Positions 2,327 to 22,529 of a stretch of 32,949 bases of DNA are shown piece after piece. The stretch spans positions 1 to 32,949 of the forward strand of contig JBFXLE010000033.1 of NCBI GenBank assembly GCA_050173015.1, written 5' to 3'. The notes below the pieces were generated by a model that was given only the letters and a program-made list of their open reading frames with translations, did no database searches and was not told the DNA's origin. The translations under genes and the position numbers were made by a program. The first letter of the stretch is position 1, and the number at the start of each line of letters is the position of its first letter. The DNA is from Calditrichaceae bacterium (GTDB lineage Bacteria; Calditrichota; Calditrichia; Calditrichales; JBFXGD01).

Positions 2327-5300
2327 ATGAAGAAATCCATCTTTGATAAAGCCGGGTTTCATCCGGTTGTCGCATCCTGGTTCAATAGGACATTTCCCAA
2401 ACCGAGTCCGCCGCAGATCAAAGGGTGGCCGGCCATCGCCTCCGGAAAACATACGCTTATCTTCGCGCCTACCGGATCAGGGAAAACGCTTGCGGCCTTC
2501 CTCTGGTGCATCGATCACCTGTTCCGTCAGTCCCTGCAATCCGATCCTGAATTATTTTCCGACAATCCGGGAGGCGTGCACACGCTGTATATCTCTCCGC
2601 TAAAGGCATTGAACAATGATATCGAAAAAAATCTTCAGGCGCCTCTTCAAGGCATATCGAAGTACGCGACAGAAGCGGCTATAACGACGCCAAAAATCCG
2701 CGCCGCGGTCCGCACGGGAGATACACCCGCTAATGTGCGTCAATCCATGCTAAAGCGTCCCCCGCATATTCTGATCACTACACCGGAATCACTGTATCTT
2801 TTACTTACCGGCGACCGCGGGAGAAAGCTCTTCAAAGGATTGAAGTACATAATCGTCGATGAAATTCACAATTTGAGCGGCGGCAAACGCGGGGTTCATC
2901 TCAGTCTTTCACTGGAACGACTGAACGCTCTTTGCGAAAACAGTCCGGTGCGGATCGGTCTTTCGGCAACTCAAAAACCACTCGATCGGATCGCCGCTTT
3001 TCTTGGCGGAAGAGAATCGACTCTCCTGAATAATCATCCAGAACCAAGACCGGTGGAGATTATAGATTGCGGATTGAGAAAGGATATGGATATCAGGGTT
3101 TTATCACCGGTTGAATCCTTTGGAGAATTGCCAGATGCCAGCGTCTGGCCCTATGTCTATGACACCCTGTATGATTTGATTCGCCGTCACAGAACCACAT
3201 TGATCTTTGCCAATATGAGGGCGCAGACGGAAAAAATCGCCCGTCATCTGAACGACCGTTACCGGAACGAAACCGGCGATCCCGAGGCGGTGATTATTCT
3301 TGCTCATCATGGCAGCATCTCCAGGGAAGAAAGGTATAAAATTGAAAGCGAATTAAAAGCGGGCCGGATCCCCGCGGTTATCGCGACGGCTTCACTTGAA
3401 CTGGGAATCGATATCGGAAGTATCGATCTGGTGATTCAGCTTGAAGCTCCTAAAAGTGTTTCCGCCGCTTTACAACGGGTGGGCAGGAGCGGGCATTTGC
3501 TTGACGCCACCAGCAAGGGGCGGATCATCCCGTTGTATCCGTCGGATTTGGATGACGCCGTGGCGATGGCGGCAAATACCGCGTCCGGTAGTATTGAAGA
3601 GACCATCATCCCTGAAAACGCTCTTGATGTTCTTGCTCAGCAGATCACCGCCGAAGTTTCCATGAGGGAATGGCCTCGCCGTGAGCTATTCCGGTTAATG
3701 ACCGGCAGTTATTGCTACCGCAATCTGACCGAAAACGCGTTCAACCGGGTTCTGGATATGCTTTCCGGTCAATACGCCGAATCCCCGCTCCGGGCCCTCC
3801 AACCCCGACTGAACTGGGACAAGGTTAATGACAATCTTATCGCGCGGCGCGGCAGTCGTCTCACCGCGATAATGAATGGCGGAACCATCCCGGACCGCGG
3901 ATATTACGGAGTTTATCTCGAAGGTGAAAATGTCAAGCTGGGTGAAATGGAGGAGGAATTTGTATTTGAATCACGAATCGGTGATATCTTCTTTCTTGGT
4001 AATAATGAATGGCGTATCAATGAAATCAGACAGGACCGCATGATCGTTTCGCCCCGGTCCGATATCAAACCAAGAGCGCCGTTCTGGAAGGGGGATATTC
4101 TTTATCGGGACTATTCCACCAGCATGCGGATCGCCGCTTTCCGGCGTGAACTTACCCAAAAAATTGAACAGGATACGGCTGAAATCTGGCTTGAGAATGA
4201 ATGCCACGCGGATCCCTTCACCGCAAAAAATCTGCTCCAATATTATCAGAAGCAAAAAGAGCACAGTTCGGTGATTGCGACCGATAAGACCTTCGTGCTG
4301 GAATGGTTCGCTGACAGCAGCGGCGAGCCCTTAATGATGCTGCACGCGCCGCTCGGCGCCAGAGTGAACGGGGCGTGGGCCATCACCATTTCGGCGGCAA
4401 TTGAACGAGCCGCGAATCTCCAGGCCCAATACACCTATGATGACGATAATATTCTAATACGTCTTCTCGATACAGAGGAAGCCCCGGACTTCGAAGCACT
4501 ATTCCGGCTGACGGCAGAGGATATTGAAGAATTGTTAGTTTCTTCGCTTATCGATACGCATATTTTTTCTATCCGCTTCCGTTATAACGCGGCGCGCGCT
4601 TTGCTGTTGCCCCGCAGCCGGCCCGGAACAAGAATTCCTCTCTGGCTTCAGCGCCTTCGGGCTTCCGACCTGCTTCAGACAGTCAGAAAATATCCTGATT
4701 TTCCGATTATCGCGGAAACATACCGGGATTGCCTGAATGATGTTTTTGACCTGGACTCCCTGAAAAAGGTGATCGGACAAATTCGGGATGGAAGCATCCG
4801 GATTCATTATGTCAATACCCCCTACCCTTCTCCCATGGCATCGGGAATCCTTTTTAAATTTCTCTCCGATAATATTTACGAATCAGATCGCAGCCGTCAT
4901 ATTGGAAAACCGGACGCGTCCTCCGGCGAATTACTAAATGAGATACTCAACAAAGAGAATATACCTTCCGTCGTTTCCCGAATAATGGTTGAGCAAGCTG
5001 AACGCCGCTGGCAGCATCTTGAACCGGCTTTCCAGGCCGGGGACAGAGAATCGCTCTATTCTATCATCGAAAAACTTGGACCGGTCAGCAGCGAAGATCT
5101 GACAAAACGGGCTTCTGATGGTCTTCAGAATTGGCTTGACGAATTAAATTCGGATAAACGCGTTTCCTTGTTAAAAGGCAGACCCGGCGGCTGGATTACG
5201 AAGTCAGACGAACCCTTGTTTTTGAAACCCATGGAAAAAGATCATCTGCGTAAGCGAATTCAAAAATTTCTGCGTACGCGTGGCCCGATCACTCAGGATA

Positions 5301-7920: not shown

Positions 7921-9102
7921 TTGGCGCTTACCTATTGCAAACAAAAGGCCGGGATCCGGAAAGTAAAAATGATTTCCTTCACATCCGCCCATATAAAAAA
8001 TGAAGGGGGCGCCTCATCAAAAATGGCGAAACCGGCCATATGGTCTCTTAACTGGCTCGTATTTTTGTTCTGTATGGCTTTTGCCCTCATCCGGTTTTTA
8101 CCTGTTTGGATCTATGAATTATTCCGTTACTGTCCGGATGCGTCGTCAGATCATCAGGATGATTCAGGATTTTTAATTATTGGTCACCGGGGCGCGGCGG
8201 CGCATGAAATAGAAAACACGATCCCTTCTCTTGAAAAAGCGCTTGATCTGCACCGGGCAAACGCTTTGGAAATAGATATATCCATGACATCTGACGGCCA
8301 TATCGTTTTATGGCATGACTGGGATCCTGATGATACTGTTGCTCTTGTCCGCCAGGCGGGTCTGGAACCCCATGTAAAATATCGCCCGTACGTTCCGCTG
8401 TCTCCGGATTATCGTAAACCCGTTCACATGATTACGCTTGATTATCTGCGGACACACTACGGCTATACACTGAAAAAAGATCCTTCTCAAAAGATTTCCG
8501 CAAAAATTCCGACTCTTCGGGAAGTGATGCAATGGTGTACAGGTGACACCGGACTAAAAGCCCTGTTTCTGGATATAAAAACACCGCTTAAATATATCGA
8601 AATGATTGAGCCAATGATAAAAGAAATCAGTCTCATACTTGATACTTTTACGCCATCATTTCCGGTTATTCTGCTGACACCGTATGAAAATATTTTAAGC
8701 CGCATGAAAGAATTTTTACCCGGCCATCATTACGCGCTTGATATCGAGATGCCTTCCGGAATTGTGATTGATCCTGAAGAATTCAGCGCGGTTAAACCGG
8801 CTGTTTTATTTCAGAACAGTTATGCCTCCGTCGGTCGACCGACAATTCTGCAGCTCGGTCCGTGGACAACTTACCGCCGGGTCATTTTACGCGATACTTA
8901 CTTGCGGGATGATCATAACCAATCGTCGCCTTATATACCCGTTGATAAACTAATCGGCTGGACAATCAACAAACGACGAGAAATGAAGTGCCTGATCCGC
9001 ATGGGTATTAACGGCATATTGACGGATTATCCCGAACGCGCCGCGATAATCATAGAGAAAAGACATCATCGTAAGACTGATCAGATTCGATTAAAAAAAT
9101 AA
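7921..9102 (+). CDS. Glycerophosphodiester phosphodiesterase family protein with N-terminal hydrophobic segment (start uncertain, could be ATG 8023)
   Basis: IIGHRGA, ENT, EIDI..T.DG..V..HD, IPTL.EV, WTIN and GILTDYP motifs. Confidence 0.88.
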   Translation: MALTYCKQKAGIRKVKMISFTSAHIKNEGGASSKMAKPAIWSLNWLVFLFCMAFALIRFLPVWIYELFRYCPDASSDHQDDSGFLIIGHRGAAAHEIENTIPSLEKALDLHRANALEIDISMTSDGHIVLWHDWDPDDTVALVRQAGLEPHVKYRPYVPLSPDYRKPVHMITLDYLRTHYGYTLKKDPSQKISAKIPTLREVMQWCTGDTGLKALFLDIKTPLKYIEMIEPMIKEISLILDTFTPSFPVILLTPYENILSRMKEFLPGHHYALDIEMPSGIVIDPEEFSAVKPAVLFQNSYASVGRPTILQLGPWTTYRRVILRDTYLRDDHNQSSPYIPVDKLIGWTINKRREMKCLIRMGINGILTDYPERAAIIIEKRHHRKTDQIRLKK

Positions 9103-10028
9103 TCCGCTCTTTTCGCTTGAAAATGCCGCCTGAGTAAACTTGTCCGCTCGCGATAAAAATTGATCAACAGTTTCATATCACACAAACCTAGTTTATTACA
9201 AATATTCTCTGCATCAATTAAACCTCCATCAATCTCAGAGAACAGGTCATCTACCCCCGTGGTGAGAATCATCGCCCTGCAGACACTGTCCAGTGAAGAG
9301 CCGCACTCTGGTTCAATTTCTCTTAGCCGGTTCAGGAGAATATTCCCCGCGTAATTATATCGATTTCTTTTTAGGTCCTGTTCCAGATCCTTCAGATCAT
9401 CACAAATCTGACCGGCCATGCTCATATTAGATCCAAACCCGGTTAGATCATCATATTCATTCATACGGTTATATCTGCTGCAATACGCGGCGGAGGCGAG
9501 ATTCAGCAAACCGGCGAGTTCAATGTACTTTACCCTGAGCGCGCGATGATCCGTATCGAAATTTTTCTCCAGTTCATCTACTTTTGACAATGCGATTTTT
9601 GAACCCTTCAACAGGTTGTTATAAATGTCCCGGAATTGGGATGCCGGATCAAAATAATTCAAAAATACAGCAGTGCCTTCTTCCAAAAAACGCTGACCGG
9701 CATCCCGCAACAACTCATTGTCCGAGTCTCCGTCAAGTAAATCATCTTCAATCCTGAAATACAAAAACACCGAAAGTTGCGCCCAAAGAATATCTTCACC
9801 AAAGACAGTATCATCATTTGCTTCAGGCCAGATCATGGCGAACATATCAGGAAGCAGCATCCAGAACGGCATTTGAAATAATTCCGCGTTTGATATTTCA
9901 CTCCCGGGCACTGTCAGATATTGATCCACCGTCTCCTTCAAATTTTCCGGTAAGTTTCTGGTAAATTGTTTCAGCCGATTCCCGATTGAGCTTACTGCCT
10001 TATAATTTTGTGTATCTGCAAGCATCAC
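9081..10028 (-). CDS. Class 1 isoprenoid-synthase-fold protein (ComQ-like prenyltransferase candidate)
   Basis: Two Asp-rich motifs, RIEDDLLDGD and QICDDLKDLEQDL, in an all-helical sequence. It lacks the RRG after the first DDxxD that chain-elongating FPP/GGPP synthases carry. Confidence 0.8.
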   Translation of the reverse strand: MMLADTQNYKAVSSIGNRLKQFTRNLPENLKETVDQYLTVPGSEISNAELFQMPFWMLLPDMFAMIWPEANDDTVFGEDILWAQLSVFLYFRIEDDLLDGDSDNELLRDAGQRFLEEGTAVFLNYFDPASQFRDIYNNLLKGSKIALSKVDELEKNFDTDHRALRVKYIELAGLLNLASAAYCSRYNRMNEYDDLTGFGSNMSMAGQICDDLKDLEQDLKRNRYNYAGNILLNRLREIEPECGSSLDSVCRAMILTTGVDDLFSEIDGGLIDAENICNKLGLCDMKLLINFYRERTSLLRRHFQAKRADYFFNRI

Positions 10029-10064
10029 TGATTTACCGACAATATCTGATAAATTGCCTGTATT

Positions 10065-10364
10065 TTACATTTTTCCGGTTTCATGAATTTTTCTCCAGTC
10101 GGGCCAGGGTTCCCAGGGATCCGGAGGCCTGGGTCCCGGTGGTTTTGGATCTAAAAGGTCGCGCGTGAGTCTTAAAATCTGCATGAAACTTGTCGGCCTT
10201 TTTTCATTGAGCAGATTTTTGACTTTGGGAATATCATCAACGCTAAACCCAAGTTCGCGATGTCGCAGCGCTTCATCCGGACTCTTAATGAGCAGATTCA
10301 GAAATTCTGCGTCACGACTCGCCAAATGATACATTTTTTCCAGTTTGTTTTCTGTCGCTTCCAT
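10065..10364 (-). CDS. NHLP/Nif11-clan leader-like peptide with Pro/Trp-rich C-terminus (putative RiPP precursor)
   Basis: ASRDAEFLNLLIKSPDEAL matches the NHLP-type 'A..D.EFR..LL.DP..AL' helix. C-terminus is PKPPGPRPPDPWEPWPDW. SD AAGGTGG favours the ATG at 10364. Confidence 0.7.
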   Translation of the reverse strand: MEATENKLEKMYHLASRDAEFLNLLIKSPDEALRHRELGFSVDDIPKVKNLLNEKRPTSFMQILRLTRDLLDPKPPGPRPPDPWEPWPDWRKIHETGKM

Positions 10365-10397
10365 AATAGCCACCTTTCAAATTAAAATAAATAATGA

Positions 10398-12803
10398 CTA
10401 ATCCGTTAATTTTTTAAGATGCTCTCCGGCGATTAACGCGTTTTGGCTCAAAGAGTCAATTCTCAGACAATTTTTAAAATATTGGATGGCGAGCTCTGGA
10501 TTATTTGCTTCCTCATAAATGATACCCAGCATGTAATAGGCATCACTGAACCCCGAATCAATATTTATTGTTTTGTAAAATTCATCTTTCGCGGCATCCG
10601 GATTACCCGCAAAAAACAATGACATTCCTAATCCGTTATGATATTCAGCAATTGGTTCTCCAAGAGACAGGGCTTTTTCATAATGATCAGATGATGGTTT
10701 AAACATCCCCACTTCAAAATATGATGAGGCCAGATCCGCGTGTATATCCGTAATCCTGATTCCGCGTTCCTGCATGCTTTTAATATAGAGGTCTTCGTAG
10801 AGCTGTGATTTGGCGGAGTCTTCTGTTTCCAGACTGAGGATCGAGAGCAAACAGTAAATTTGCGGAAATACGGGCTTAATCTGAATGGAACTTTCCAGTA
10901 CATTTTTTGCCTTGTCACGGTCACCGGTTTGAAAATAACTCGCGCCAAGCAAATAATAAGCCGGTGAATATTCCCATTCCATTTCAACAATATTTTTTAG
11001 CGTTTGAATACTACCACTATAATCGTTCATCATATATAAAATTCTGGCAAGACTAAACAAAAGGATATTATTCTGCGGTGAATACTCCAAAGCGATTCGC
11101 AGATATCTCGCCTGCGCCGGATAATCATTCGCGATCATTGCCCCGGCCCAGTCGATCATTACTTCCTCGAAAGGAGTAGCGTTCGATTCCAGTTTACGCA
11201 GAATTTCGTAGTGCGTATTTGCCTGTTCCACATCTTGCTGTTGCATCAGTTTTGATATTAGCCAGATTCTCGGAGACAAAAACGTGGAATCAAGCTCAAT
11301 GGCGCGCAGCAGGTATTTTTCCGCGGCGGGATCCAGGCGAAAATTATACTGTCCCGCCTGAATAAACGCTTGTATGGCCGGTATGTTTTCTGAGCCGGTC
11401 CTTATCCAGGGCGCGATATCCGTTGCCTTGGTGGACGATATAAATTTTAACCGCAGATGGTTAAGAATTTTCACCACTATACTGTCAATTTCCTGCAAAA
11501 TATTATCTTCATCGATTAATGACCGGCTGTAAGAAAATTTGATTTCAGCGGTTTGTGATTCGACTACGCTTGATTGAAGCAGCAGCTTATTGCCAAATTG
11601 TGTGATAGTGCCGTCAACAACATAAACGATTCCAATTTCTCTGAGCCTCCTGTAGAGCGCTTCATCTCTTATAGGCGCCGTTCCGTCCTCCGAACTTCTG
11701 ATCAATCCGTTAAGACTTAAGGGATCAACAATTCCCAGCTCTTTAACACCGGTTAATTCTCTAACTATCAGATTCTGGATAAGCATGGGAAGACCTTTGG
11801 ATTCAATATTTTTTGTTAGCGTCCGGAAGGGAAGTACCCCAACACGCCACCGGTCATCCACCGGCGCCGAATTCAGGGAAATCCTGCTCGACGCGACCCA
11901 GAAAACAGTCAAAGCCACTAATGATGCGGCAATAAAATAAGTGACCGTTTTAGTCAGTTTGCGTTTTATCCCATACATTAGTCCGGCTGATTTACCCTCG
12001 AGCAGCTCCAAAACTTCCATCATCGACTGCGGACGCAAATCCGGATTTTTTTCCAGACAAAGGTCACACAATTTTTCCAGAAGAATTCTTTTTTTATGAT
12101 TGGATGGATCTATTTTCACGGGTTTTTCGTGCAGGATTGAGTAAATGACTGCCTGTTCATAATCTCCCCGAAAAGGCAGCTCTCCGGTCAACATTTCATA
12201 CAAAACAACGCCAAAGGACCAGATATCGGTTCGATGATCCACCGGATCGCCTCTGGCCTGTTCAGGAGACATATAACCTACTGTTCCCAGCGCTATACCT
12301 GTTTTTGTCAATTTTGTCTGACCTGAAAATTTGGCCAGCCCAAAATCCAGAATCCTTACCATCCCATTCGGACTAATGACAATATTGGATGGTTTTATAT
12401 CTCTGTGGATGATACCCGCATGATGAGCGCAGTTTAATCCTCGGGCTAATTGGCGTGTAATTCTCAAAATCATATCAGTTTCGAGGGGCCCGGTTCCAAG
12501 CAGGGTTTTAAGAAGATTTCCTTCGCAATAGGGCATACAAATATACAACTGACCGTCATCAGTTTCATTTATTTCATATATACTGCATATGTTTGTATGC
12601 TCTAATTTTGATACAGCCAGGGCTTCGTGAATAAATCTTTTTTTAGATTCCTCATCCCTTGTCAATTCCGGCGGGAGAAATTTAAGCGCGACTTTGCGAC
12701 CTAATTTAATATCTTCCGCCATATAAACGATTCCCATCCCGCCCCCGCCGATTTGTTTCAGAATATGGTAATGGGAAACCTTTTCACCTACGCGAACAGA
12801 CAT
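10398..12803 (-). CDS. Membrane Hanks-type Ser/Thr kinase with TolB_N/FlgO-like and TPR extracytoplasmic domains
   Basis: GGGGMG, VALK, HRDIKPSN, DFG and YMSPEQ motifs; TM at ~aa 287-305; VGVLPF; multiple TPRs. Confidence 0.93.
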   Translation of the reverse strand: MSVRVGEKVSHYHILKQIGGGGMGIVYMAEDIKLGRKVALKFLPPELTRDEESKKRFIHEALAVSKLEHTNICSIYEINETDDGQLYICMPYCEGNLLKTLLGTGPLETDMILRITRQLARGLNCAHHAGIIHRDIKPSNIVISPNGMVRILDFGLAKFSGQTKLTKTGIALGTVGYMSPEQARGDPVDHRTDIWSFGVVLYEMLTGELPFRGDYEQAVIYSILHEKPVKIDPSNHKKRILLEKLCDLCLEKNPDLRPQSMMEVLELLEGKSAGLMYGIKRKLTKTVTYFIAASLVALTVFWVASSRISLNSAPVDDRWRVGVLPFRTLTKNIESKGLPMLIQNLIVRELTGVKELGIVDPLSLNGLIRSSEDGTAPIRDEALYRRLREIGIVYVVDGTITQFGNKLLLQSSVVESQTAEIKFSYSRSLIDEDNILQEIDSIVVKILNHLRLKFISSTKATDIAPWIRTGSENIPAIQAFIQAGQYNFRLDPAAEKYLLRAIELDSTFLSPRIWLISKLMQQQDVEQANTHYEILRKLESNATPFEEVMIDWAGAMIANDYPAQARYLRIALEYSPQNNILLFSLARILYMMNDYSGSIQTLKNIVEMEWEYSPAYYLLGASYFQTGDRDKAKNVLESSIQIKPVFPQIYCLLSILSLETEDSAKSQLYEDLYIKSMQERGIRITDIHADLASSYFEVGMFKPSSDHYEKALSLGEPIAEYHNGLGMSLFFAGNPDAAKDEFYKTINIDSGFSDAYYMLGIIYEEANNPELAIQYFKNCLRIDSLSQNALIAGEHLKKLTD

Positions 12804-13296
12804 GAGTGAATTCTTTTATTTTAGTATAACTTCACCCCGGTATTTTTTGATTCTCCACCGGGGAGTATAGCCACTTAAAAATCCAATCTTTTAGTTGGAC
12901 CTATGATTAATTGTACCATCCAAACCGCCGGTGCCATATTAAATCTGAATTGCAGAAGAGAAGTGTAAAAATAACAAGCGGATTAAAGAAGAATCGTGGG
13001 ATGATTAACCGGATACCATGACAGCTCTTTGGCAAACGATATCAAAATCTGTCCCATATTGCAAGATAAAAAAAACAATCTATGGAAATTGCACCATATT
13101 TAAATTACTCCTGAGATAACTTAACTAAAAAAAATGACACCGGATCTGACAAAGTGCGACACAGAATCAGATTTCCGGTTTTGAATCTAAAAATCCAATA
13201 TTAGTAATTTTATTTATATTCAGGGCACCGGCTGTTTAATTTGATTTTTGGATATATGCGACATCGTCTGCTCTCAAAAATTTTTTTGTCAATCGG

Positions 13297-14307
13297 TTAA
13301 TTGTTATCCGCCAGTAGGCTTAACTGCCAGACATCATGATTCGATCGGTGAAGTATTGGAGACAGAGCCAGTTTCCCCGCTTTACCGATGCTCTTTCCCA
13401 AAAAATCCAGTTCCGCCAATTTTTCGTTTATTTCATCATCGAACAACACCGGAAAGCCGTTCGCTTTCATTAAAAGAATACCCTTCGCGCGAATTGAAAG
13501 CTCAAGATGAATCCTGAGATAACATAACATATCTCCTATAATCAGACTCCGGAATCCACTTTTTAGGGAATGCAGATACTTTCCTGTTTTTGTTTCACTA
13601 AAATTGCCGGATGAAATATAATCAAGCATTTGCACATCTCCGTCAAGCCCTTCTTCCAGCCAATCACATAGTATTTTTTCGCTTATATTGAATATGATTA
13701 CTAAAAACAGGGGCAGAAGCAAAAGCTGGAATATTGTAAGTATATGCGGCGGAACAAGAAAATGATTGAACAGCGAGTGAATCCCAATCGCTAAAACAAT
13801 ACCGGGAATAAAAACAAAAAATTTTCCCGATACGTTTTTATCGAACCACATCTTTGAAATCACCGCGAATATTGCCGTTGTCCCGCCATGCATCATTGCT
13901 GTTCCAAAACCGCGGACAGTCCATAAGAAGAAATCGTTGTTTTCAAGTCGCGACAGATAATAAATGTTTTCGATGACGGCAAATCCCGCGCCTGCCGCGA
14001 ATCCCAGTACCGCGCCATCCACCATAAAACCTATCCTATAGGATTTAATCATATAAAAGATGAATACCGCCTTGAAAAACTCTTCGATTCCCGGAGAAAC
14101 ATATCGTGAATATGCCGTAAACTCCATTGATCCGTTTGACAGAAGAAACCGGTTGATCCCCATACTGAAAAGCGCGGAAACCATTCCCGCAAAAACTGCA
14201 ATCAGAATTTTCTTTATCCCGGTCAGCTTGTATGTGTCAATAAAAACAAGCGCGATTAAAAAGACAAATACCGGAATAATACTTATAAATATATTGAACG
14301 CGTTCAT
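13297..14307 (-). CDS. prsW: PrsW-family intramembrane glutamic/metallo-protease
   Basis: PGIEEFFK, GFAVIEN, AMMHG and HSLFN motifs; multiple TMs; TAATG overlap with the upstream gene. Confidence 0.9.
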   Translation of the reverse strand: MNAFNIFISIIPVFVFLIALVFIDTYKLTGIKKILIAVFAGMVSALFSMGINRFLLSNGSMEFTAYSRYVSPGIEEFFKAVFIFYMIKSYRIGFMVDGAVLGFAAGAGFAVIENIYYLSRLENNDFFLWTVRGFGTAMMHGGTTAIFAVISKMWFDKNVSGKFFVFIPGIVLAIGIHSLFNHFLVPPHILTIFQLLLLPLFLVIIFNISEKILCDWLEEGLDGDVQMLDYISSGNFSETKTGKYLHSLKSGFRSLIIGDMLCYLRIHLELSIRAKGILLMKANGFPVLFDDEINEKLAELDFLGKSIGKAGKLALSPILHRSNHDVWQLSLLADNN

Positions 14308-17243
14308 TATAATATCTTTAATGAAATCATAAATTCATCCGTCGTTTTTTTATTTTGTTCAAATGCCCGCGCGTAGCCAATTGAAAATGTGACTTTCAAA
14401 TGCGACATTACAATCAACCGAAAATCTCCCTGCAGTCCGGCGTTACTCAAAGTCCTTCGGAATAATTCATTATCAAAGTCTGTAATCAGTCCCGATGAGA
14501 AAAGTGAAAACCGCGCCCAGGACATATAAAATGATGGGATACCCGCATGGCGAAATCTCAGCGGCGGCAAATTCCATTCGATCATAAAACGGTCGTAATT
14601 TTTCCCTGCGGCGGCGTTGATCTCCAAACCCGGGAAACTATAATACTCTCTGTAACGCTTTTCCGGCCTGTAATCCACCCAATTGTTCCCAAAGCCTCCA
14701 AAATAATAATTGGTGAACGGATTATTTCGGTCTCCCCAGGCATGACCAATAGAGTTTCTCAACCAGACTGAAGAGTGATTTATCGCGAGCGGAAATCCGA
14801 GATGCATATTCATGAATATGTGCGGATATAATACTCCATTAACCTGATAATTATATGAATTTAGCTCCCATTCAAATCCTTTTTCATAATCAACCGAGCC
14901 AAGAGATGAGGTCATATTTCCATATTTAAAACCGGCGCCGAATGTCTGAAACCGGTCATAGGTTGTCCCGATATTCTGGTAATCCGGTAATCGTTTAAGA
15001 TTACCGTAATGAGTCAAAAACATGGACAGATCCATCGATTTGGGCAGGTCCGACAGAAGTGACTTTTCATACCGCAGCCCCGCTGAATACCCTTTACGAC
15101 TCACTTTTGTCGGACCAAAGAGATCGTAGAAATCAGCGTAATTATATTTTAAATCCGCTTTCCAGTTCAGATAACGATATTGCATGCCCGCGTGTATTTT
15201 TTCAGAATCCGTTAAATTGTTTTGCGGAGAATAGGAACCTGTGACACTCATATCATGCAGACCCAACGGACTCGAAATGTTCAATCGCGCGCCAAATGCG
15301 GTGTAATCTTTATAACCTTCCAGGACGGGATACGCCGAAACAAGTGACAGATGGCTAAGTTCTGAGTATTCTCCGGTGGACATGGTCATGGAATCAATAT
15401 TGACGTTTGCCGGGGAATCCGCCAGCCAGTCTTTAACGATGGGATATCGGGTAACGATTTCTTGTCCGAGATACTGAATGGCGCTGACTTTCTCCACAGG
15501 TTGAATCCACATTTTAACCGGATCAAATCCTTTTCCGGTATATCTGAACACGATCAGTGAATCGTCTGACACCGGAATCGGCCTGAAAAATCCGGTTTCA
15601 CAATTACTGAGCGCTTCCATATCATTCATCTCAAAATTATACCGGAAGATATTCGACACACCTGAATAATAGGACGAACCGTATAAAAACCTGTCGTCCG
15701 GTGAAAACAAAAAATTCGCCGGATTGCTGTTTTCAAAGTCAAACAGGATATCATAGGAATATACGCCTTTTAACAAACTGTCCACCGGCATCATAATCAA
15801 CTGCTGACGCCCGTTTATTTCAGCCAGCGCGCCGCTCAGAAACTTACCGTTATGAGAAATATCGATATCGTACATATCTTTTCCATAAGGCCATGAATAG
15901 ATCTGCTTCCAGTCATGATAGGGATACTCCATTCTCACAACCGTTGATATTCCGTTAAAATGCCGGATACCCCAAAGGGATTTATCTTGCGCGTTGAAAA
16001 CCAGGTCGCCTATTCTGGCATCCTTCATCAGAACACTCGATTTACCGCTTTTTAAATCAAACAGATTGATATCACGCCAGCCATCATTATCGGTTGTATA
16101 ATAAATGATTTTTTCAGTCTGGTCATATGCCAGTGAGGTGACGTAATAAAGCGCGGCTCCTTTTATATCACAGATCTTTTTAATATTCGGCATATCGGTA
16201 TCCAGTTCCGCGATATGCGCGATCTGACCGGGATAATTCACCGCCGCGTAAAGTTTTTGGTTTGTGGAATCGTAATACGCTCTTGAAACGGAACCAAGAG
16301 GGTTGTGAGAAAGATTTTTGTATGGTGTAACCGGATTAGCCCGGATTCGATCAAGATTGGCCTGCTGAAACTCATGTTCCCACGCGATCCATTTACTCCA
16401 CTCCTTATCCATCGAAAAGCCGTATATTTTTTTGAACTGCGACGCGAAATAGGCTCTGCTGCCGTCTCTCCTTTCCGCCCATTGAACCAATTTTTCCGGG
16501 CCATAGGTATACGCGAGGTAACTCATAAAACGGGTTCCGTAGAGATAGGATACAACCCCCACCTGAAAATCGGTCTTCATACCTTCCGACTCCAGTCCAA
16601 CCAGATCATAAATTTGGACACTGTCTCTTTCCATTGTGCGGAATACCATCTCATCATACGCGCCAAGCGCCCGGCCTATGCCCCCTGCCATCCAGGTATC
16701 CAGAAACACGGCGATACCCTCCCTATACCATCTTGGTGAATATTTTCGCGGAACCGTCAAATAACCGTAAAACATGGAAAGCGGATTTTCATGATCGGGC
16801 CTGACTTTGCCCATAAACACCGTCCGGAAAAACCGGTCGCTTTTTGAAGTTTGATCCAGGGTAACGATATGCACGAGTTCATGATTCATAATGGAATTCA
16901 TGCGCTCATTGGCCGGCACCGTTTCGTATGTGTAGCTGTATGGCGCTATACCGACAATAATAATATTATTCGGGATTGTCCCCGCCGCCGCATTGCCAAA
17001 ATCGCTGAAATCATGCAGAAATACAGTGACTTTTTCCTGGGGATGATAATTAAACAACTGACGGTGGTACAGATAGGAATTTTCAAAACATCTGGCCACA
17101 TGTTTTTCGAGATAGGCATTTGTTTTACCAATCGAAACCAGACGGAGATCATTCGTTTCAATGACATTAAACTGTCCCGAACAGGGAATTACCGAAATCA
17201 GGAATATGATTATTAATTTAAAAATCACTTTATTAAAAGTCAT
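14307..17243 (-). CDS. Exported protein: gluzincin-like peptidase domain + beta-propeller + probable outer-membrane beta-barrel
   Basis: Signal peptide; NHELVH...PRWYREGIA zinc motif; TolB/PD40-like repeats (FSPDDRFL, ISHNGKFL); alternating amphipathic strands at the C-terminus. Confidence 0.8.
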   Translation of the reverse strand: MTFNKVIFKLIIIFLISVIPCSGQFNVIETNDLRLVSIGKTNAYLEKHVARCFENSYLYHRQLFNYHPQEKVTVFLHDFSDFGNAAAGTIPNNIIIVGIAPYSYTYETVPANERMNSIMNHELVHIVTLDQTSKSDRFFRTVFMGKVRPDHENPLSMFYGYLTVPRKYSPRWYREGIAVFLDTWMAGGIGRALGAYDEMVFRTMERDSVQIYDLVGLESEGMKTDFQVGVVSYLYGTRFMSYLAYTYGPEKLVQWAERRDGSRAYFASQFKKIYGFSMDKEWSKWIAWEHEFQQANLDRIRANPVTPYKNLSHNPLGSVSRAYYDSTNQKLYAAVNYPGQIAHIAELDTDMPNIKKICDIKGAALYYVTSLAYDQTEKIIYYTTDNDGWRDINLFDLKSGKSSVLMKDARIGDLVFNAQDKSLWGIRHFNGISTVVRMEYPYHDWKQIYSWPYGKDMYDIDISHNGKFLSGALAEINGRQQLIMMPVDSLLKGVYSYDILFDFENSNPANFLFSPDDRFLYGSSYYSGVSNIFRYNFEMNDMEALSNCETGFFRPIPVSDDSLIVFRYTGKGFDPVKMWIQPVEKVSAIQYLGQEIVTRYPIVKDWLADSPANVNIDSMTMSTGEYSELSHLSLVSAYPVLEGYKDYTAFGARLNISSPLGLHDMSVTGSYSPQNNLTDSEKIHAGMQYRYLNWKADLKYNYADFYDLFGPTKVSRKGYSAGLRYEKSLLSDLPKSMDLSMFLTHYGNLKRLPDYQNIGTTYDRFQTFGAGFKYGNMTSSLGSVDYEKGFEWELNSYNYQVNGVLYPHIFMNMHLGFPLAINHSSVWLRNSIGHAWGDRNNPFTNYYFGGFGNNWVDYRPEKRYREYYSFPGLEINAAAGKNYDRFMIEWNLPPLRFRHAGIPSFYMSWARFSLFSSGLITDFDNELFRRTLSNAGLQGDFRLIVMSHLKVTFSIGYARAFEQNKKTTDEFMISLKIL

Positions 17244-18441: not shown

Positions 18442-19209
18442 TCAATCCGCGATTATCGTTTTATGCGTAAATATGTTAGTATCCGGACCGGCAATGGTGA
18501 TTTTGAGGAGGGATTCAACGGTAATCGTTCGTTGGAATGTCAGAACACAGTCGAGATCATCAATATTTATTATCTCTAATTTACCTATTTGGGTATTTAA
18601 GCCGTGTTCACCCGGTGTCCGCAATCTGAAATTTTCGAACAATAGATGCTCATTGTCGTACTCCACAAACAGATCATACTGCTCTTCACCCCTTAAATCT
18701 GTCTCAATCCGGATAAGGTCTTTGGTCTGGACAACTTTAATGCTCCCCTTAATTCCGTTTGTGTGAACAGAAACTGATTCAACCACCGGGTTATACATCT
18801 GTTTTTCAAGTCCCATAGTTCCATAGAGACTGCTATTATCAACGCGTATATTTAGCGGCCATAATACAATAACGATAATTCCAAAAAGAACACCCAGAGC
18901 GAAGGTGAACGCCATTTTCGGACGCGGGGATGAGAACCAGTTTTGAATCATTTCCTGAACATTCCCGCGGTATGGATCCCGAGCGTATTTCTCTTTATTT
19001 ATAGAATCCATGATTCTTTCACGCATTTTTTCGGGAACATCCGCCTGCGGTACTTTATCAAGCAATACCACTGTTTCTTTCAATTCCTGATAAAAAATTT
19101 TGGCATCGGCGTGCTCCAGGAGATATCCCGTGAGTAGTTTTCGCTCTCCCGCGGATATTACTCCGTCAAGTTCTTTATGCATGAGTTCGATATATTTCTC
19201 ATCAATCAT
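18442..19209 (-). CDS. Transmembrane anti-sigma factor
   Basis: Overlaps the ECF sigma stop (ATGATTGA). N-terminal ELDG.IS..E...L..YL helix pattern lacks the HxxxCxxC cysteines. Single TM, then a beta-rich external domain. Confidence 0.8.
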   Translation of the reverse strand: MIDEKYIELMHKELDGVISAGERKLLTGYLLEHADAKIFYQELKETVVLLDKVPQADVPEKMRERIMDSINKEKYARDPYRGNVQEMIQNWFSSPRPKMAFTFALGVLFGIIVIVLWPLNIRVDNSSLYGTMGLEKQMYNPVVESVSVHTNGIKGSIKVVQTKDLIRIETDLRGEEQYDLFVEYDNEHLLFENFRLRTPGEHGLNTQIGKLEIINIDDLDCVLTFQRTITVESLLKITIAGPDTNIFTHKTIIAD

Positions 19210-19750
19210 TTTGTAACATACCATATTTTAGTAGAACATCTTTTAACATCTGCCGGGCGGTAAAAAGTCGTGATTTAACTTTTTTTTCCGGGATATCGGC
19301 TATGTAGGCGATCTCTTCGTAACTGCATCCCTGGAAATGTTTTAATATGATCAGTATCCGGTAATTATAAGGCACTTCCATTAAGGCTTCCTGAATCCTT
19401 TCATTTCTCTCCCATTCTTCAAAGATCTCGTCCGGAGTTTTCCCTTTTGAAACCATACCTTCCGTCAAAGTTTCGATACGCTTTCGCTGATTCAAATAAT
19501 TGAGTGTTTCATTTAAGGCAATCCGGTATATCCAGCTGAAAAACTTGTATTTTGGATTAAATGATCTCAGGTTTTCATAAACCTTGATAAAAACCGATTG
19601 AGTGATATCCTCCGCGTCATCGAATCTGTGAATCATTCGGTAAACCACATTAAAGATGGTTTTTTGATACTTATCCACCAGAATTTCAAATGATTTTATA
19701 TCACCCTTGATACATTTCTTTACCAGGATTGAATCATTGCTTTCACTCAT
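19202..19750 (-). CDS. ECF RNA polymerase sigma factor
   Basis: Region 2 (DAEDITQSVFIK, FFSWIYRIALN) and region 4 (SYEEIA, VKSRLFTAR); 182 aa. Confidence 0.95.
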   Translation of the reverse strand: MSESNDSILVKKCIKGDIKSFEILVDKYQKTIFNVVYRMIHRFDDAEDITQSVFIKVYENLRSFNPKYKFFSWIYRIALNETLNYLNQRKRIETLTEGMVSKGKTPDEIFEEWERNERIQEALMEVPYNYRILIILKHFQGCSYEEIAYIADIPEKKVKSRLFTARQMLKDVLLKYGMLQND

Positions 19751-19813: not shown

Positions 19814-20098
19814 TCACTCAATTTCAAAAATCATATCGAACCCGGCATATGTAAATACTTCTTTTATATGCCGGTTCATATTTTTTAATTTTAATCGATG
19901 TCCGGAGTTATTCAGGCGTTTCTGCGTCATTAATAAAACGCTCAGACCCGCGCTGGATATGTAATCAAGATTCTCAAAATTTACATCGCATGAACTGATG
20001 ATTTCTTCAAACACGGCTTTTGCCTTATCCGTCTGAGCCGCGTCTAAACGGCCAGAAAGCAAAACAGTACTATCTTCTCCCAATTTAATTTCAAACAT
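19814..20098 (-). CDS. STAS-domain anti-sigma-factor antagonist (RsbV/SpoIIAA-like)
   Basis: LSGRLDA and LDYISSAGL phosphoacceptor motif. Confidence 0.9.
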   Translation of the reverse strand: MFEIKLGEDSTVLLSGRLDAAQTDKAKAVFEEIISSCDVNFENLDYISSAGLSVLLMTQKRLNNSGHRLKLKNMNRHIKEVFTYAGFDMIFEIE

Positions 20099-20516
20099 TT
20101 GTCCGCCTTAATTTTTTCACCAAAGTGATTACCGCTTTATTTTCACCATACTCATATTCAATCCGGTCAACATATTGTGTCGCGAGATGAACACCTATTC
20201 CCCCGGTCTCACGATCAGTCAGGGTTCGGGTTGTGTCATATTTTTTTGCTTTTCTGATATCAAATCCTTTTGTATTGAATTCACTCATTCTCACAATCAA
20301 TTCATCCTCCGCGCGCATGAGTGTGATCAATATGTCCTCTTTATTATCAGCGTTGTATTTTACCATATTTGTAAATAATTCCTCGACCGCGAGGGACAAT
20401 CCAAACGCGGAATCTTCATCCACATCGCTTCTTTTAACAAATTCGTCGATAAACTCAAAAACTTTCTCCACTTCCCGAAGGCTTCTTTTAAAACGTTTTT
20501 CCATTTCATTCCGCAT
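20091..20516 (-). CDS. RsbW/SpoIIAB-like anti-sigma serine kinase (HATPase_c)
   Basis: LAVEELFTNMVKY N-box and GGIGVHL G-box. Confidence 0.9.
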   Translation of the reverse strand: MRNEMEKRFKRSLREVEKVFEFIDEFVKRSDVDEDSAFGLSLAVEELFTNMVKYNADNKEDILITLMRAEDELIVRMSEFNTKGFDIRKAKKYDTTRTLTDRETGGIGVHLATQYVDRIEYEYGENKAVITLVKKLRRTNV

Positions 20517-20531
20517 AAAATTTGTTTTGAC

Positions 20532-21857
20532 TTAAATTATTTTTATCGCGATCATGGCGATATCATCCGCCTGAGCGGCATCCCCGGTAAAACGCCGGAG
20601 TTCCTTTTTTACAGATTCTATGACCATCCCGGCGGATTCGCGCGCGGATATTTTCACCGCGCTCATCATTCTCTCCATCTGAAACATCTCTTCGTCGCCG
20701 TTGACCGATTCTGTCACCCCGTCAGTGTAAATAAAAATCTGATCGCCGGAATTCAATGCTGACTTGTGCAATTGATAATCATAATTCGGCGATACATTCA
20801 GCGCGCAGCCTTTGACTTCAATCATCTTCAGGGAATCATCCGATCCGCGGTAAAACAGGAAAGGATTATGTCCCGCGTTTGAATAGTACAGGACCTTTTC
20901 ACGGAAGTCGATCACCAGAAAGAGCATGGTTACAAATAATTCAGGAGGTAAAGTCCGACTTAAGATAGAATTGATTTCTCCCAGTCCCCGGTCGGCCGAA
21001 GTATAGTTTAATGTAATCGATTGCAGGATGCCTTTGATCATCGTCATCACCAGCGCCGCGGAAGGACCGTGACCTGACACATCGGCAATGACGATTCCCG
21101 TTTTTTGATCACCGAGGTCAAAGAAATCAAAATAGTCTCCGCCGACAGCATCCGCCGGAAGAAAATAACTTGCCACATCCATCCCCGGAGATTGTGGGTT
21201 CTTTTCAGGTAGCAGACTTTGCTGCATCTTGCGGGCGAGATCCAATTCATTTTCAAGCCGTCTTTTCTCATGCGCTTCTGTTTGTAACTGCGAATTACGG
21301 ATCAGCTGTCCCGATTGAGCCGCGATGATAGAGAGAAGTCTTAGATCGTCTGGAGTAAAAGGAGTTTCCGTTTTTTTATTGGTGACCATCAAAACGCCAA
21401 TTATTTTCGCCTTTAACCAGATCGGAACACAAAGTATACTGCGGATGTCTTCCTGTTCTTTCAAAGTGGTTTTGAAGCGATCATCCTCCGCGAGATGATC
21501 CACCAATAACGGTTGACGGTGCTTTAGTACCCAACCCGTGATATGCGTACCCACTCTGTAGGTCATTAATCTGCCTGAATGATCCGCCTGCCTGATTAAT
21601 GTCTGAAGCGGTTTGTCCTTCTGTTCCGTCACCAGCAAAATTGAACCCTGTTCGGCTTTAACCGCTTTGATCGATTTCTCTACAATCAGATCCAGCATCT
21701 CATCCAGTTCAGAGGCTCTGCCCGCGGCGATAGCCAGTTCATTTAGAACGGTCAACTCATCAACCGCTGATTTTAGCCTTTCAACTTCGTTTTGAAGACG
21801 GAGGATTTCAGACATTTCTTTGTCTGCTATTTTTTGCTGTGTGGTGGATTGATTCAT
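20532..21857 (-). CDS. Coiled coil-GAF-PP2C (SpoIIE/RsbU-like) phosphatase
   Basis: VGGDYFD, ADVSGHG, NAGH, YTDGVTE and DDIAM motifs; GAF NKK..F...D. The G5 SD favours a start at 21857 (MNQST). Confidence 0.93.
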   Translation of the reverse strand: MNQSTTQQKIADKEMSEILRLQNEVERLKSAVDELTVLNELAIAAGRASELDEMLDLIVEKSIKAVKAEQGSILLVTEQKDKPLQTLIRQADHSGRLMTYRVGTHITGWVLKHRQPLLVDHLAEDDRFKTTLKEQEDIRSILCVPIWLKAKIIGVLMVTNKKTETPFTPDDLRLLSIIAAQSGQLIRNSQLQTEAHEKRRLENELDLARKMQQSLLPEKNPQSPGMDVASYFLPADAVGGDYFDFFDLGDQKTGIVIADVSGHGPSAALVMTMIKGILQSITLNYTSADRGLGEINSILSRTLPPELFVTMLFLVIDFREKVLYYSNAGHNPFLFYRGSDDSLKMIEVKGCALNVSPNYDYQLHKSALNSGDQIFIYTDGVTESVNGDEEMFQMERMMSAVKISARESAGMVIESVKKELRRFTGDAAQADDIAMIAIKII

Positions 21858-21923
21858 TCCACCCCCTGACATTAAAACATAAACCGGCTTTACCGGATGT
21901 TTTATGAACTTTTAATCCGGCTC

Positions 21924-22268: not shown

Positions 22269-22529
22269 TGAGCCCCCCACAATTAAGGATAAAGATGAAA
22301 TGTAGTTGTAATTTCTAAGATTAGACCGGAATATTTTATAAATTTTCACACAAAAAGAAGTAGGAAATGTAATAAATCGTATTCCGCGCAGAAAAAAGTG
22401 GCGCTCGTTTCCAGACCGGATCATACGGTAAATGAAATGACGGTTCTGACTCAGCCTATCTGCCGGAAATCTAAATATGAAATTAGTAAAAGTAAACGAT
22501 TGATTTTTTTTCTACGTTCTCCTAAATGA

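Follow-up and report, generated by a model that had tools for sequence, protein, structure and literature searches.

In the ComQ-ComX-ComP-ComA system of Bacillus subtilis, as the available portions of the literature describe it, the gene for a trans-IDS-fold enzyme adjoins those for a precursor and a membrane kinase, and the peptide is prenylated on an internal Trp (PMC10853753, PMC13290415, PMC5331326). The PalP-PalX-PalQ system of Paenibacillus alvei (Miyata, Ito, Fujinami 2023) brings together a membrane kinase, a precursor of the NHLP type whose acceptor residue is Trp, and an enzyme that belongs to the isoprenoid synthase superfamily but to none of its named subfamilies; in the available text, its cluster carries neither a transporter nor a GG site, PalQ uses Q197, D200, and D204, and the leader aids catalysis but is separable from it (PMC10853753). 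Outside the Bacillota, StheQ/StheX of Sphaerobacter thermophilus provides a trans-IDS-fold peptide Trp prenyltransferase, described in what is accessible of the preprint as having one Mg-binding site, located at the first Asp motif, and a pocket for the peptide adjoining the active site (bioRxiv 10.64898/2026.08.29.745113). The P domain of ChrPC is also trans-IDS-like and prenylates an internal Trp of a ribosomal peptide (Hubrich et al. 2024, via PMC13290415). The accessible part of that article states that characterized trans-IDS-like peptide prenyltransferases all target Trp and that a Gln just upstream of the SARM is common to them (PMC13290415).

We analyzed a locus that resembles these systems in a 32,949-nucleotide stretch of Calditrichaceae DNA, hereafter the window. 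As the initial annotation had noted, three closely spaced minus-strand genes encode a kinase, a small peptide, and the enzyme, with intergenic gaps of 24 and 36 nt (Table 1). We put at roughly 60% the probability that this cassette makes a Trp-prenylated ribosomal peptide coupled to a membrane receptor Ser/Thr kinase. In this model, the C-terminal helix of the enzyme would dock the NHLP-clan-like helical leader of the 99- or 102-aa precursor, and the enzyme would transfer a prenyl group to a Trp of the Pro/Trp-rich core, most likely the invariant W90, using an allylic diphosphate donor from the three canonical synthases of the host genome. The lipidated peptide would then be trimmed or exported by other factors and sensed by the kinase on the outer side of the membrane, via its alpha/beta sensor and TPR superhelix, and the kinase would signal by phosphorylation. 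The observations in the initial annotation were confirmed and its interpretation is supported in part.

Table 1. Features of the cassette and its upstream neighbors (window coordinates).
Feature	Position	Strand	Basis or remark
Hanks-type Ser/Thr receptor kinase, 801 aa	10398..12803	-	ORF call; Pkinase and TPR matches
Cytoplasmic kinase domain, residues 12-264	12012..12770	-	Pfam Pkinase
Single transmembrane segment, residues 286-305	11889..11948	-	Hydropathy scan, flanking residues
Predicted extracytoplasmic alpha/beta sensor domain, residues 319-430	11514..11849	-	AlphaFold model
Predicted extracytoplasmic TPR superhelix, about 14 helix pairs, residues about 475-801	10401..11381	-	AlphaFold model
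Precursor peptide, 102 aa from GTG (99 aa from ATG at 10362-10364)	10065..10373	-	ORF call
NHLP-clan-like leader, residues 11-56	10206..10343	-	NF038399 match and co-fold contacts
Pro/Trp-rich core, residues 76-102	10068..10148	-	Sequence; W90 alignment; co-fold
Core Trp codons W87, W90, W93	10113-10115, 10104-10106, 10095-10097	-	
Trans-IDS-fold enzyme, putative peptide Trp prenyltransferase, 315 aa (314 from ATG at 10023-10025)	9081..10028	-	ORF, model
First Asp-rich motif DDLLD (D95, D96, D99), R92 before	9732..9746	-	54-sequence conservation
Second motif QICDDLKDLEQD (Q207, D210, D211, D214, D218)	9375..9410	-	54-sequence conservation
PrsW-family protease	13297-14307		Candidate protease immediately upstream of trio
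978-aa HExxH protein	14307-17243		Candidate protease immediately upstream of trio

The only entry found for the window peptide in the protein collection is its 99-aa form (P0004). Its C-terminal part reads PKPPGPRPPDPWEPWPDWRKIHETGKM, and the tail motif PPDPWEPWPDW holds the three Trp residues that had been pointed out from the start. Their conservation also bears up: W90 is the sole invariant column in an alignment of 15 peptides, and Trp is present in all 30 non-redundant tails, where it makes up 4.9% of residues compared to 0.7% in the leaders (for Pro, 12.7% compared to 5.1%). The position of the Trp varies, being internal in the window peptide and C-terminal in those of loci L017 and L036. 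The leader had been called NHLP-like. The window peptide matches NF038399 over residues 20-55 with an E-value of 0.016, but at 15.3 bits it falls short of the cut-off of 40; at E<=1, 10 of 15 family peptides match this model and 5 of 15 match TIGR03793, and one of ten peptides scanned individually passes the NF038399 cut-off. Judged by these matches, the leader is NHLP-clan-like, mostly below the model threshold.

A check of the window peptide found no GG, and the cassette has neither a linked exporter or leader peptidase nor a GG site. To this extent the initial annotation was right that none of these is visible nearby, but the PrsW-family and HExxH candidate proteases lie immediately upstream. 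The 978-aa HExxH protein occurs in 25 of 86 genomes of the phylum and the enzyme in 4 of 86 (one of these, G041, being a 48-residue match with E 2.3e-4); in G043 the HExxH protein is on another contig than the trio, and G038 has the trio but yielded no such protein. By this distribution, the PrsW and HExxH proteins behave as an independent, more widespread module.

The kinase is a TPR receptor kinase of the Hanks type, as proposed: Pkinase matches with an E-value of 7.5e-54, the motifs VALK38, HRDIKPSN133, and DFG153 are present, and several TPR families match. KRKLTK lies on the N-terminal side of the transmembrane segment. In the AlphaFold model of the ectodomain (m59e4465ca914, pLDDT 87.5), ectodomain residues 14-125 fold into the strands and helices of the predicted alpha/beta sensor, which no Pfam family matches in a Pfam scan; a Foldseek search with the TPR superhelix gave nothing more specific than generic TPR superhelices, the OGT TPR domain among them (1w3b, E 6.5e-10). 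RRNPP receptors, to which the TPR region had been likened, work as regulators in the cytoplasm, binding unmodified peptides that have been re-imported. Here too the TPR repeats are proposed to bind a signaling peptide, but they are fused to a kinase, and a single transmembrane segment is predicted to place them outside the membrane; the protein is therefore not an RRNPP-like cytoplasmic receptor.

The two halves of the kinase have different relatives. The kinase domain shares about 49% identity with those of the two paralogues encoded in the window. Across about 460-500 residues, the sensor half is 27-46% identical to enzyme-adjacent kinases of other phyla, and full-length similarity in this half is limited to kinases adjacent to the enzyme; similarity to the window's own paralogues is patchy (21-25%), with only the kinase domain and generic TPR similarity in common. 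On these alignments, the sensor half forms a specific group of orthologues that is inherited together with the peptide and enzyme in different phyla, as expected of a cognate partner. This argues against the strongest competing explanation, which we consider unlikely but serious, that the enzyme prenylates the peptide and yet the kinase does not read the product as a signal; the product might instead be a membrane-anchored small protein or a bioactive lipopeptide, with the kinase controlling peptide production or responding to another envelope cue. Consistent with such a product, the cassette has no linked exporter, processing site, or response regulator, TPR kinases are abundant as paralogues (three in the window, five in L009), and many cores are long with charged tails (a Lys-rich tail in L023, 141-142-aa forms in L009 and L013), a pattern closer to that of a small protein than to that of a short pheromone. 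The described precedents speak for a signal: in the available text, both ComQXP and PalPXQ pair a modified peptide with a membrane kinase gene (PMC10853753).

The enzyme model (pLDDT 93.2) has the isoprenyl-synthase fold that had been suggested, superposing on polyprenyl synthase 4jyx with a VIA Z of 23.3 (rmsd 2.8 A, 282 residues aligned). Its whole-chain structural neighbors are trans-IDS (Z 20-23 over about 280 residues), and it shares both Asp-rich motifs with the canonical enzymes (PF00348), although identity is just 10-17%. By Pfam, however, it is not a member of the ComQ/polyprenyl_synt family: the polyprenyl_synt score is 17.3 bits against a cut-off of 27, and no model reaches its cut-off in Pfam and NCBIfam scans. 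By sequence, then, the enzyme belongs to an unnamed family, with 372 representative clusters at E<=1e-3. The best 150 relatives are 221-381 aa long and therefore stand-alone proteins, whereas ChrPC, in the available description, is fused to a cyclase domain (PMC13290415).

Among 54 family sequences, D95, D96, D99, D211, D214, and D218 are invariant, position 92 is K/R in 100%, and Q207 and D210 are conserved in 94% and 98%, respectively. The second motif, Q207-D218, includes DDLKD and aligns with the SARM of polyprenyl synthase 4lob as well as with the second motif in CrtM 8is6. The presence of two DDxxD motifs with no RRG is thereby borne out: a motif check of the window enzyme found no post-FARM RR(G), GKRxR, or KT, and loose patterns for GKRxR, post-FARM RR, and KT match 1, 8, and 7 of the 54 family members, respectively. 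The host genome's three canonical synthases all have RR and KT, and one has GKRxR; in them the distance between the first motif and the F of FQxxDD is 123-132 residues, compared to 112 between the first motif and the Gln before the second here. Since they too have a Gln before the SARM, this residue is not discriminating. Read from these patterns, the enzyme keeps the Asp motifs that bind Mg/diphosphate and has lost the motifs of the elongation (IPP) site.

It is rather improbable, though worth weighing, that the enzyme performs other chemistry on the peptide, whether a non-prenyl reaction, modification of another residue, or a head-to-head or cyclizing reaction as in squalene/phytoene-synthase-like enzymes. 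Its motifs do align to those of CrtM (R-x-x-DD; Q...D..ED...R.Y), SQS_PSY weakly matches 8 of the 54 family members, and no family model names it. Against this, the sole invariant residue of the peptide is a Trp, the whole-chain neighbors are trans-IDS, and the characterized peptide-modifying enzymes with this fold all prenylate Trp, according to the accessible text of PMC13290415.

Co-folding supports binding of the peptide by the enzyme. The predicted complex scored 0.76 (runs 0.76, 0.77, and 0.57) compared to 0.02 for the best control; 58 of 80 solved complexes reach the mark applied, as do 2 of 110 mismatched pairs. At least 81% of contacts are common to the runs, with a partner pLDDT of at least 68. 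In the model, peptide residues 15-29 contact the C-terminal helix of the enzyme (301-314) and residues 78-96 touch enzyme residues 51-57, 85-95, and 202-216, placing the Trp core over the two Asp motifs. Because a co-fold indicates binding and not catalysis, the small protein could also be an accessory or regulatory subunit of an enzyme making free lipids, like the small subunits of heteromeric hexa-/heptaprenyl diphosphate synthases, and heteromeric trans-IDS are indeed among the structural neighbors (3aqb, Z 22.2; 9kp1). We regard this as quite improbable: the enzyme lacks the elongation-site motifs, and the small protein combines an NHLP-clan-like leader with a disordered tail rich in Pro and Trp that includes the invariant Trp and, in the co-fold, lies over the Asp motifs.

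The kinase, peptide, and enzyme genes are all present in 14 of 15 related genome loci, labeled Calditrichota, Bacteroidota, Chlorobiaceae, Ignavibacteriota, Acidobacteriota, and Gemmatimonadota (loci L008 and L011 repeat loci already found in G038 and G043), and small ORFs homologous to the window peptide adjoin the enzyme in other loci. In metagenomes, a peptide-HMM match lies directly upstream of the enzyme in 21 of 24 loci (of the other three contigs, two carry no sequence beyond the enzyme on that side and the third breaks off within the enzyme gene), and the region for the kinase sensor is present in 15 of 24, the remaining contigs being too short. The expected linkage of enzyme homologs to such peptides, and the synteny of the trio, are thus both seen. 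With the trio recurring in several phyla, in two gene orders, and in every metagenome contig that extends far enough around the enzyme, its adjacency is not due to chance, and a fortuitous arrangement of unrelated genes can be set aside.

Compared to the described systems, as far as the available texts go, the locus is closest to PalPXQ. It shares the Q-x-x-D-x-x-x-D second motif of PalQ (Q207, D210, and D214 here), the D-x-x-x-D first motif, and a cluster with no transporter or GG site; the predicted docking of the leader on the enzyme parallels the role of the PalQ leader. It differs in its kinase, which is of the Hanks Ser/Thr type and bears a predicted periplasmic sensor and TPR superhelix, whereas PalP is a histidine kinase; in its cores, which are Pro-rich with an internal Trp (in the window peptide, W90 lies 12 residues before the end), whereas PalQ requires Trp at the C-terminus; and in its hosts, which belong to Gram-negative phyla rather than Paenibacillus. 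ComQ falls in a named family (IPR033965), whereas the window enzyme does not reach the polyprenyl_synt cut-off; ComX has no NHLP leader; and ComP, a histidine kinase, is paired with the response regulator ComA, whereas no response regulator is adjacent here in the window. StheQ is described as a ComQ homologue and is likened to our enzyme by description only. Homology of the enzyme to PalQ and ComQ is a lead, drawn from motif spacing, context, and an ESM-Atlas lead to Bacillota clusters (TM 0.82).

The proposal of a ComQXP-analogous system with an NHLP leader therefore stands with respect to the conserved trio, the Trp core, and the fold, but not as a novelty: the combination of an NHLP precursor with a prenyltransferase was already published, in the part of the source available, as PalP-PalX-PalQ (PMC10853753). 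The new elements are a receptor kinase of the Ser/Thr type, cores rich in Pro and Trp, and hosts from Gram-negative phyla. The cassette most likely makes and senses a lipid-tagged peptide, as ComX and PalX systems do, with a different kind of receptor.

Three close-set genes on the minus strand at 9081-12803 encode a receptor kinase, a candidate precursor peptide, and an enzyme with the fold of a trans-isoprenyl diphosphate synthase (trans-IDS). The description of this layout in the initial annotation was accurate; all three ORFs are found, with 24 and 36 nt between neighbours. The 99-aa version of the peptide is the one present in the protein collection. Because the 3' end of the enzyme gene overlaps a convergent GDPD-family gene (7921-9102, plus strand) by 22 nt, at 9081-9102, the operon ends at the enzyme gene. 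A search for promoters and terminators across 8800-13500 found no excess over shuffled sequences (9 sites versus a mean of 10.9; 3 versus 3.9).

Features of the cassette and of a partner-switching-type module in the window
Feature	Position	Strand	Remarks
Trans-IDS-fold enzyme	9081-10028	-	315 aa
Precursor peptide	10065-10373	-	102-aa ORF, or 99 aa counted from ATG
Receptor kinase	10398-12803	-	801 aa; Pkinase E 7.5e-54
ECF sigma factor	19202-19750	-	partner-switching-type module
RsbW-like ATPase (HATPase_c_2)	20091-20516	-	partner-switching-type module
GAF-SpoIIE phosphatase	20532-21872	-	partner-switching-type module
STAS protein	21924-22424	-	partner-switching-type module

The enzyme is rare in the phylum: four of 86 genomes have a match, the window's own among them, and one of the four matches covers 48 residues only. 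In G038, a genome of the same genus, and in G043, which belongs to another family, the kinase, peptide, and enzyme genes stand in the window's order. When species genomes were scanned with a 10-sequence enzyme alignment, we obtained 15 loci labelled Calditrichota, Bacteroidota/Cytophagia, Chlorobiaceae, Ignavibacteriota, Acidobacteriota/Vicinamibacteria, and Gemmatimonadota, two of which (L008 and L011) repeat the loci of G038 and G043. At 14 of the 15, the enzyme is adjacent to a kinase whose sensor half aligns to residues 301-801 of the window kinase over ~460-500 residues at 27-46% identity; this kinase lies upstream of the enzyme in 13 and downstream at locus L012. The same 14 loci carry a small ORF with a Trp-bearing tail, which at L012 comes after the kinase. 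Only L021 differs: on this 3.9-kb contig the enzyme gene (2663-3552) is broken between two frames, its N-terminal motif WLLLPAWL being out of frame with the rest, and neither kinase nor peptide is visible; this copy may be decaying.

Metagenomes gave a similar picture. With an HMM built from 15 peptides and run on 24 metagenome loci, we found a match directly upstream of the enzyme in 21; two of the others (L038 and L040) lack any sequence upstream of the enzyme, and the third (L033) has the gene order of L012 and ends inside the enzyme. The kinase sensor region is present in 15 of the 24, the remaining nine contigs ending too soon to show one. These results show that the adjacency of the trio is more than chance, and the synteny that the initial annotation had put forward as a check on its proposal holds across genomes and metagenomes alike. 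All 15 genome loci are labelled as MAGs, no cultured host is among the loci, and the single-contig genomes in the phylum scan are without the enzyme.

The enzyme had been called ComQ-like, a label that Pfam does not bear out at the level of family: its score against polyprenyl_synt (PF00348) is 17.3 bits, below the gathering cut-off of 27. All Pfam and NCBIfam models stay below their cut-offs on the enzyme (DUF5685 scores 15.7 versus 26.7 bits and FPPsyn gives E 0.011), and a PF00348 search of the whole genome found three other genes, the cassette enzyme not being among them. Its 54 relatives likewise give weak matches only, to SQS_PSY in eight (best E 6.4e-5) and to polyprenyl_synt in seven; the window enzyme has no match to PF00494 (squalene/phytoene synthase), and CrtM (8is6) aligns with it over both motifs only (E 0.0094). 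A word-index search returned three relatives only. An exhaustive profile search extended the family to 372 representative clusters at E<=1e-3, a number that falls to 253 at <=1e-10 and to 148 at <=1e-30; the best 150 are all 221-381 aa long, and every one of the 36 relatives retrieved with source names is 'hypothetical' or unnamed. Its nearest neighbours in the ESM Atlas are clusters without names, most of them from Bacillota (feature score 0.97; structure TM 0.82, 245 members), a proximity that we take as a lead only.

The AlphaFold model of the enzyme (pLDDT 93.2, pTM 0.90) is a complete trans-IDS fold. VIA-align superimposes it on 4jyx with Z 23.3 and an rmsd of 2.8 Å over 282 aligned residues at 11% identity, and its top 50 structural neighbours are almost all trans-IDS-type prenyl synthases, each with Z of at least 20.2. 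Foldseek agrees on the fold and places the indole prenyltransferase Ord1 (9v4g) at rank 28. The first and second Asp-rich motifs (FARM and SARM) are represented by DDLLD (D95-D99) and QICDDLKDLEQD (Q207-D218), which in HMM alignments resemble both the SARM of a polyprenyl synthase (4lob) and the R-x-x-DD and Q...D..ED...R.Y motifs of CrtM (8is6). D95, D96, D99, D211, D214, and D218 are invariant in 54 enzyme sequences, Q207 is conserved in 94% and D210 in 98%, and conserved basic residues are limited to R92 (100% K/R) and R223 (93%).

Of the features of a chain-elongating trans-IDS, the fold is present and the basic motifs of the IPP and diphosphate sites are missing. GKRxR, the post-FARM RR(G), and KT are all absent from the window enzyme, and loose GKRxR, RR, and KT patterns match 1, 8, and 7 of the 54 relatives; in the three canonical PF00348 synthases of the same genome, RR and KT are found in all three and GKRxR in one. 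The initial annotation had read the sequence in this way, as two Asp motifs lacking the RRG of chain-elongating synthases, and the alignment bears it out. The spacing differs as well, with a constant 112 residues from the first motif to the Gln in this family and the first motif 123-132 residues ahead of the F of FQxxDD in these three canonical enzymes. Retention of the Asp motifs together with loss of those of the second-substrate (IPP) site argues that the enzyme keeps the predicted machinery for binding and ionizing an allylic diphosphate.

Several characterized enzymes of this fold act on peptides. In the sources consulted, those described as prenylating Trp are ComQ, PalQ, the ChrPC P domain, and StheQ (PMC13290415; bioRxiv 10.64898/2026.08.29.745113); every trans-IDS-like enzyme characterized as a peptide prenyltransferase (ComQ, the ChrPC P domain, and PalQ) is stated to target Trp (PMC13290415), and StheQ and its precursor StheX, from Chloroflexota, were added in 2026 (bioRxiv 10.64898/2026.08.29.745113). 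The Paenibacillus alvei trio consists of a histidine kinase (PalP), an NHLP-type precursor with the core DNVRRFFW (PalX), and the enzyme PalQ, which is placed in the isoprenoid-synthase superfamily outside its named subfamilies, prenylates the C-terminal Trp at C3, and is described as limited to terminal Trp (PMC10853753). Its Q197, adjoining D200 and D204, is proposed to hydrogen-bond the indole NH (PMC10853753). A Gln just upstream of the SARM is common to ComQ, the ChrPC P domain, and PalQ (PMC13290415), and Ord1 has the same residue (Q216, with D219; PMC12510300). The window enzyme holds the FARM, the SARM, and the upstream Gln of PalQ-type enzymes: Q207/D210/D214 form a Q-x-x-D-x-x-x-D pattern with the spacing of Q197/D200/D204, a likeness of motif spacing and not of sequence alignment (PMC10853753). 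Because the canonical synthases of the same genome carry FQxxDD, we regard this Gln as a mark of shared ancestry that is necessary but non-discriminating.

The peptide itself ends in PKPPGPRPPDPWEPWPDWRKIHETGKM, with Trp at 87, 90, and 93 of 102 residues; these positions are internal, in contrast to the C-terminal acceptor Trp of PalX. The sole invariant column among 15 aligned peptides is W90 (window numbering), usually with a Pro beside it, and after removal of near-identical tails all 30 remaining peptides have at least one Trp within their last 45 residues, confirming the conservation of core Trp on which the earlier proposal depended. Trp makes up 4.9% of the tail versus 0.7% of the preceding leader, and Pro 12.7% versus 5.1%. 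Examples of tails include ...PPPPPPPPW..., ...NIPPPPPWQA, ...PTPPPPPTW (with a C-terminal Trp), and ...KPWPEAS; Trp stands at the very C-terminus only in L017 and L036. An unusually cationic core variant occurs at L023 (1272-1637), where a run of ~10 Pro is followed by VW and a Lys-rich tail of ~35 residues.

For the NHLP-like leader named in the initial annotation the matches are mixed: NF038399 is matched at E<=1 by 10 of 15 peptides, but its cut-off is 40 bits and the window's own peptide reaches 15.3. At the same E value, TIGR03793 matches 5 of the 15; the Pfam model Frankia_peptide matches 3 of the 15, and among 10 peptides scanned individually only that of L018 passes a curated cut-off (45.1 bits versus 40). 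Because the scores are mostly below cut-off, we call the leader NHLP-clan-like and not a member of the clan. A word-index search with the peptide returned only itself.

Three co-folding runs of the enzyme with the peptide, from alignments of 54 and 15 rows respectively, scored 0.76, 0.77, and 0.57 (median 0.76) versus 0.02 for the best control. Of 80 solved complexes, 58 reach the mark applied, as do 2 of 110 mismatched pairs. The runs have at least 81% of their contacts in common, with partner pLDDT of at least 68. In the model, residues 15-29 of the leader pack against the enzyme helix 301-314, and the core (78-96), including all three Trp, lies over enzyme residues 51-57, 85-95 (including D95), and 202-216 (including Q207, D210, and D214). 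It seems unlikely that the score reproduces a known structure, since we know of no solved complex of this kind. The model thus supports binding of the peptide by the enzyme as a predicted substrate; it speaks to binding, not to catalysis.

The third component is a Hanks-type Ser/Thr kinase, with a Pkinase domain at residues 12-264 (E 7.5e-54) and the catalytic Lys, HRD, and DFG. With VALK38, HRDIKPSN133, and DFG153 all kept, it looks catalytically competent. The PalPXQ system has a membrane histidine kinase, whereas the cassette kinase is of the Pkinase family, as it is at 14 of the 15 genome loci. The protein has one hydrophobic segment (286-305), flanked N-terminally by KRKLTK; judged from sequence, this puts the last 500 residues on the outer side of the cytoplasmic membrane. 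This putative ectodomain has many TPR matches at ~560-790, and its AlphaFold model (pLDDT 87.5, 16-sequence alignment) contains a small alpha/beta domain, a long helix, and ~14 TPR-like helix pairs. The Foldseek matches are generic TPR superhelices only, such as the OGT TPR domain, and so give no clue to ligand specificity.

Two other TPR Ser/Thr kinases are encoded on the minus strand of the window (867 aa at 23118-25721 and 871 aa at 26205-28820), with 49% identity to the cassette kinase in the kinase domain and patchy similarity in the TPR region (21-25%). Because these paralogues share only the kinase domain and patchy TPR similarity, the sensor half defines a specific orthologue group that is co-inherited with the peptide and enzyme. 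Small minus-strand ORFs without a Pfam family adjoin both paralogues (142 aa at 22530-22958 and 99 aa at 25864-26163), and G038 repeats the 99-aa/867-aa/141-aa arrangement at L006 (187-3688); the genes at 22530-28820 may be other small-protein/kinase pairs. At L009 (320-12789), five tandem Ser/Thr kinases on one strand surround the cassette, and among them the cassette-type sensor half is confined to the kinase encoded immediately upstream of the peptide. In the near-identical loci L013 (3138-5541) and L027 (2138-4541), the cassette kinase occupies two overlapping ORFs of 275 and 657 aa, the result of either a frameshift or an assembly error; in the related L026 the gene is intact (802 aa).

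From several independent lines of computation, we think that the enzyme prenylates the precursor on a core Trp, with prenyl donors that the genome's three canonical synthases, encoded elsewhere, would provide. The prenylated product would then reach the outer face of the membrane, where the co-inherited kinase would sense it with its sensor and TPR ectodomain; we think this of export and sensing from co-inheritance and by analogy to the Bacillus ComQXP system and PalPXQ. Taken together, the parts would make a Gram-negative peptide-pheromone circuit, in which a Pro-rich, Trp-prenylated peptide is released to the periplasm or outside and a eukaryote-like receptor Ser/Thr kinase binds it within its TPR superhelix, a tentative reading to which we give roughly a one-in-three chance.

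We found the cassette linked to no exporter, GG site, or dedicated protease, in agreement with the initial annotation, which had seen no double-Gly site or transporter next to it. At 13297-17243 (minus strand), the gene for a PrsW-family intramembrane protease (336 aa) shares one base with a neighbouring gene, whose 978-aa product contains HELVH and weakly matches Peptidase_MA_2; this pair also adjoins the cassette at L014, L030, and L032. We considered the protease and the 978-aa HExxH protein as the leader peptidase of the cassette and rejected them, the pair adjoining the trio in two lineages only. As a cassette partner the 978-aa protein fails too: it occurs in 25 of 86 phylum genomes versus 4 of 86 for the enzyme, in G043 its gene sits on a contig other than that of the trio, and in G038 it was not found. 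Most of those 25 genomes are without the enzyme. At the G038 locus (L006, 4515-4745), a 76-aa PrsW remnant (the last 76 codons) lies upstream of the kinase with a STAS gene ahead of it, which points to rearrangement at the cassette edge. The partner-switching-type module in the window is a possible output pathway of the kinase. Judged from ORF translations alone, RsbW-, STAS-, and sigma-like genes follow the enzyme at L010, and a PP2C-like gene precedes the kinase at L013, L019, L026, and L027.

The central idea of the initial annotation is sound, but its logic of NHLP leader, prenyltransferase, and kinase was published in 2023 for PalPXQ (PMC10853753). New relative to the literature consulted are a receptor kinase of the Hanks type that carries a putatively periplasmic TPR solenoid, cores rich in Pro in which the Trp is mostly internal, an enzyme family that has no name, and the spread over Gram-negative phyla. 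In the literature searched, we found no description of a Ser/Thr-kinase-linked cassette of this kind; Figures S3/S6 of the PalQ study and the network clusters of the review may already include relatives of the enzyme family. The family may supply biocatalysts that take internal, Pro-flanked Trp, PalQ being described as terminal-only (PMC10853753). The enzyme family that the cassette defines comprises 372 representative clusters (E<=1e-3), and the cassette links it to one particular group of orthologues among TPR receptor Ser/Thr kinases. ComX-type modified-peptide signalling is regarded as a Bacillota trait, and to our knowledge the bacterial TPR receptor Ser/Thr kinases have essentially no known cognate ligands. 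If true, the pheromone circuit would extend lipopeptide quorum sensing outside Bacillota and would provide the first cognate ligand for a large class of bacterial TPR receptor kinases.
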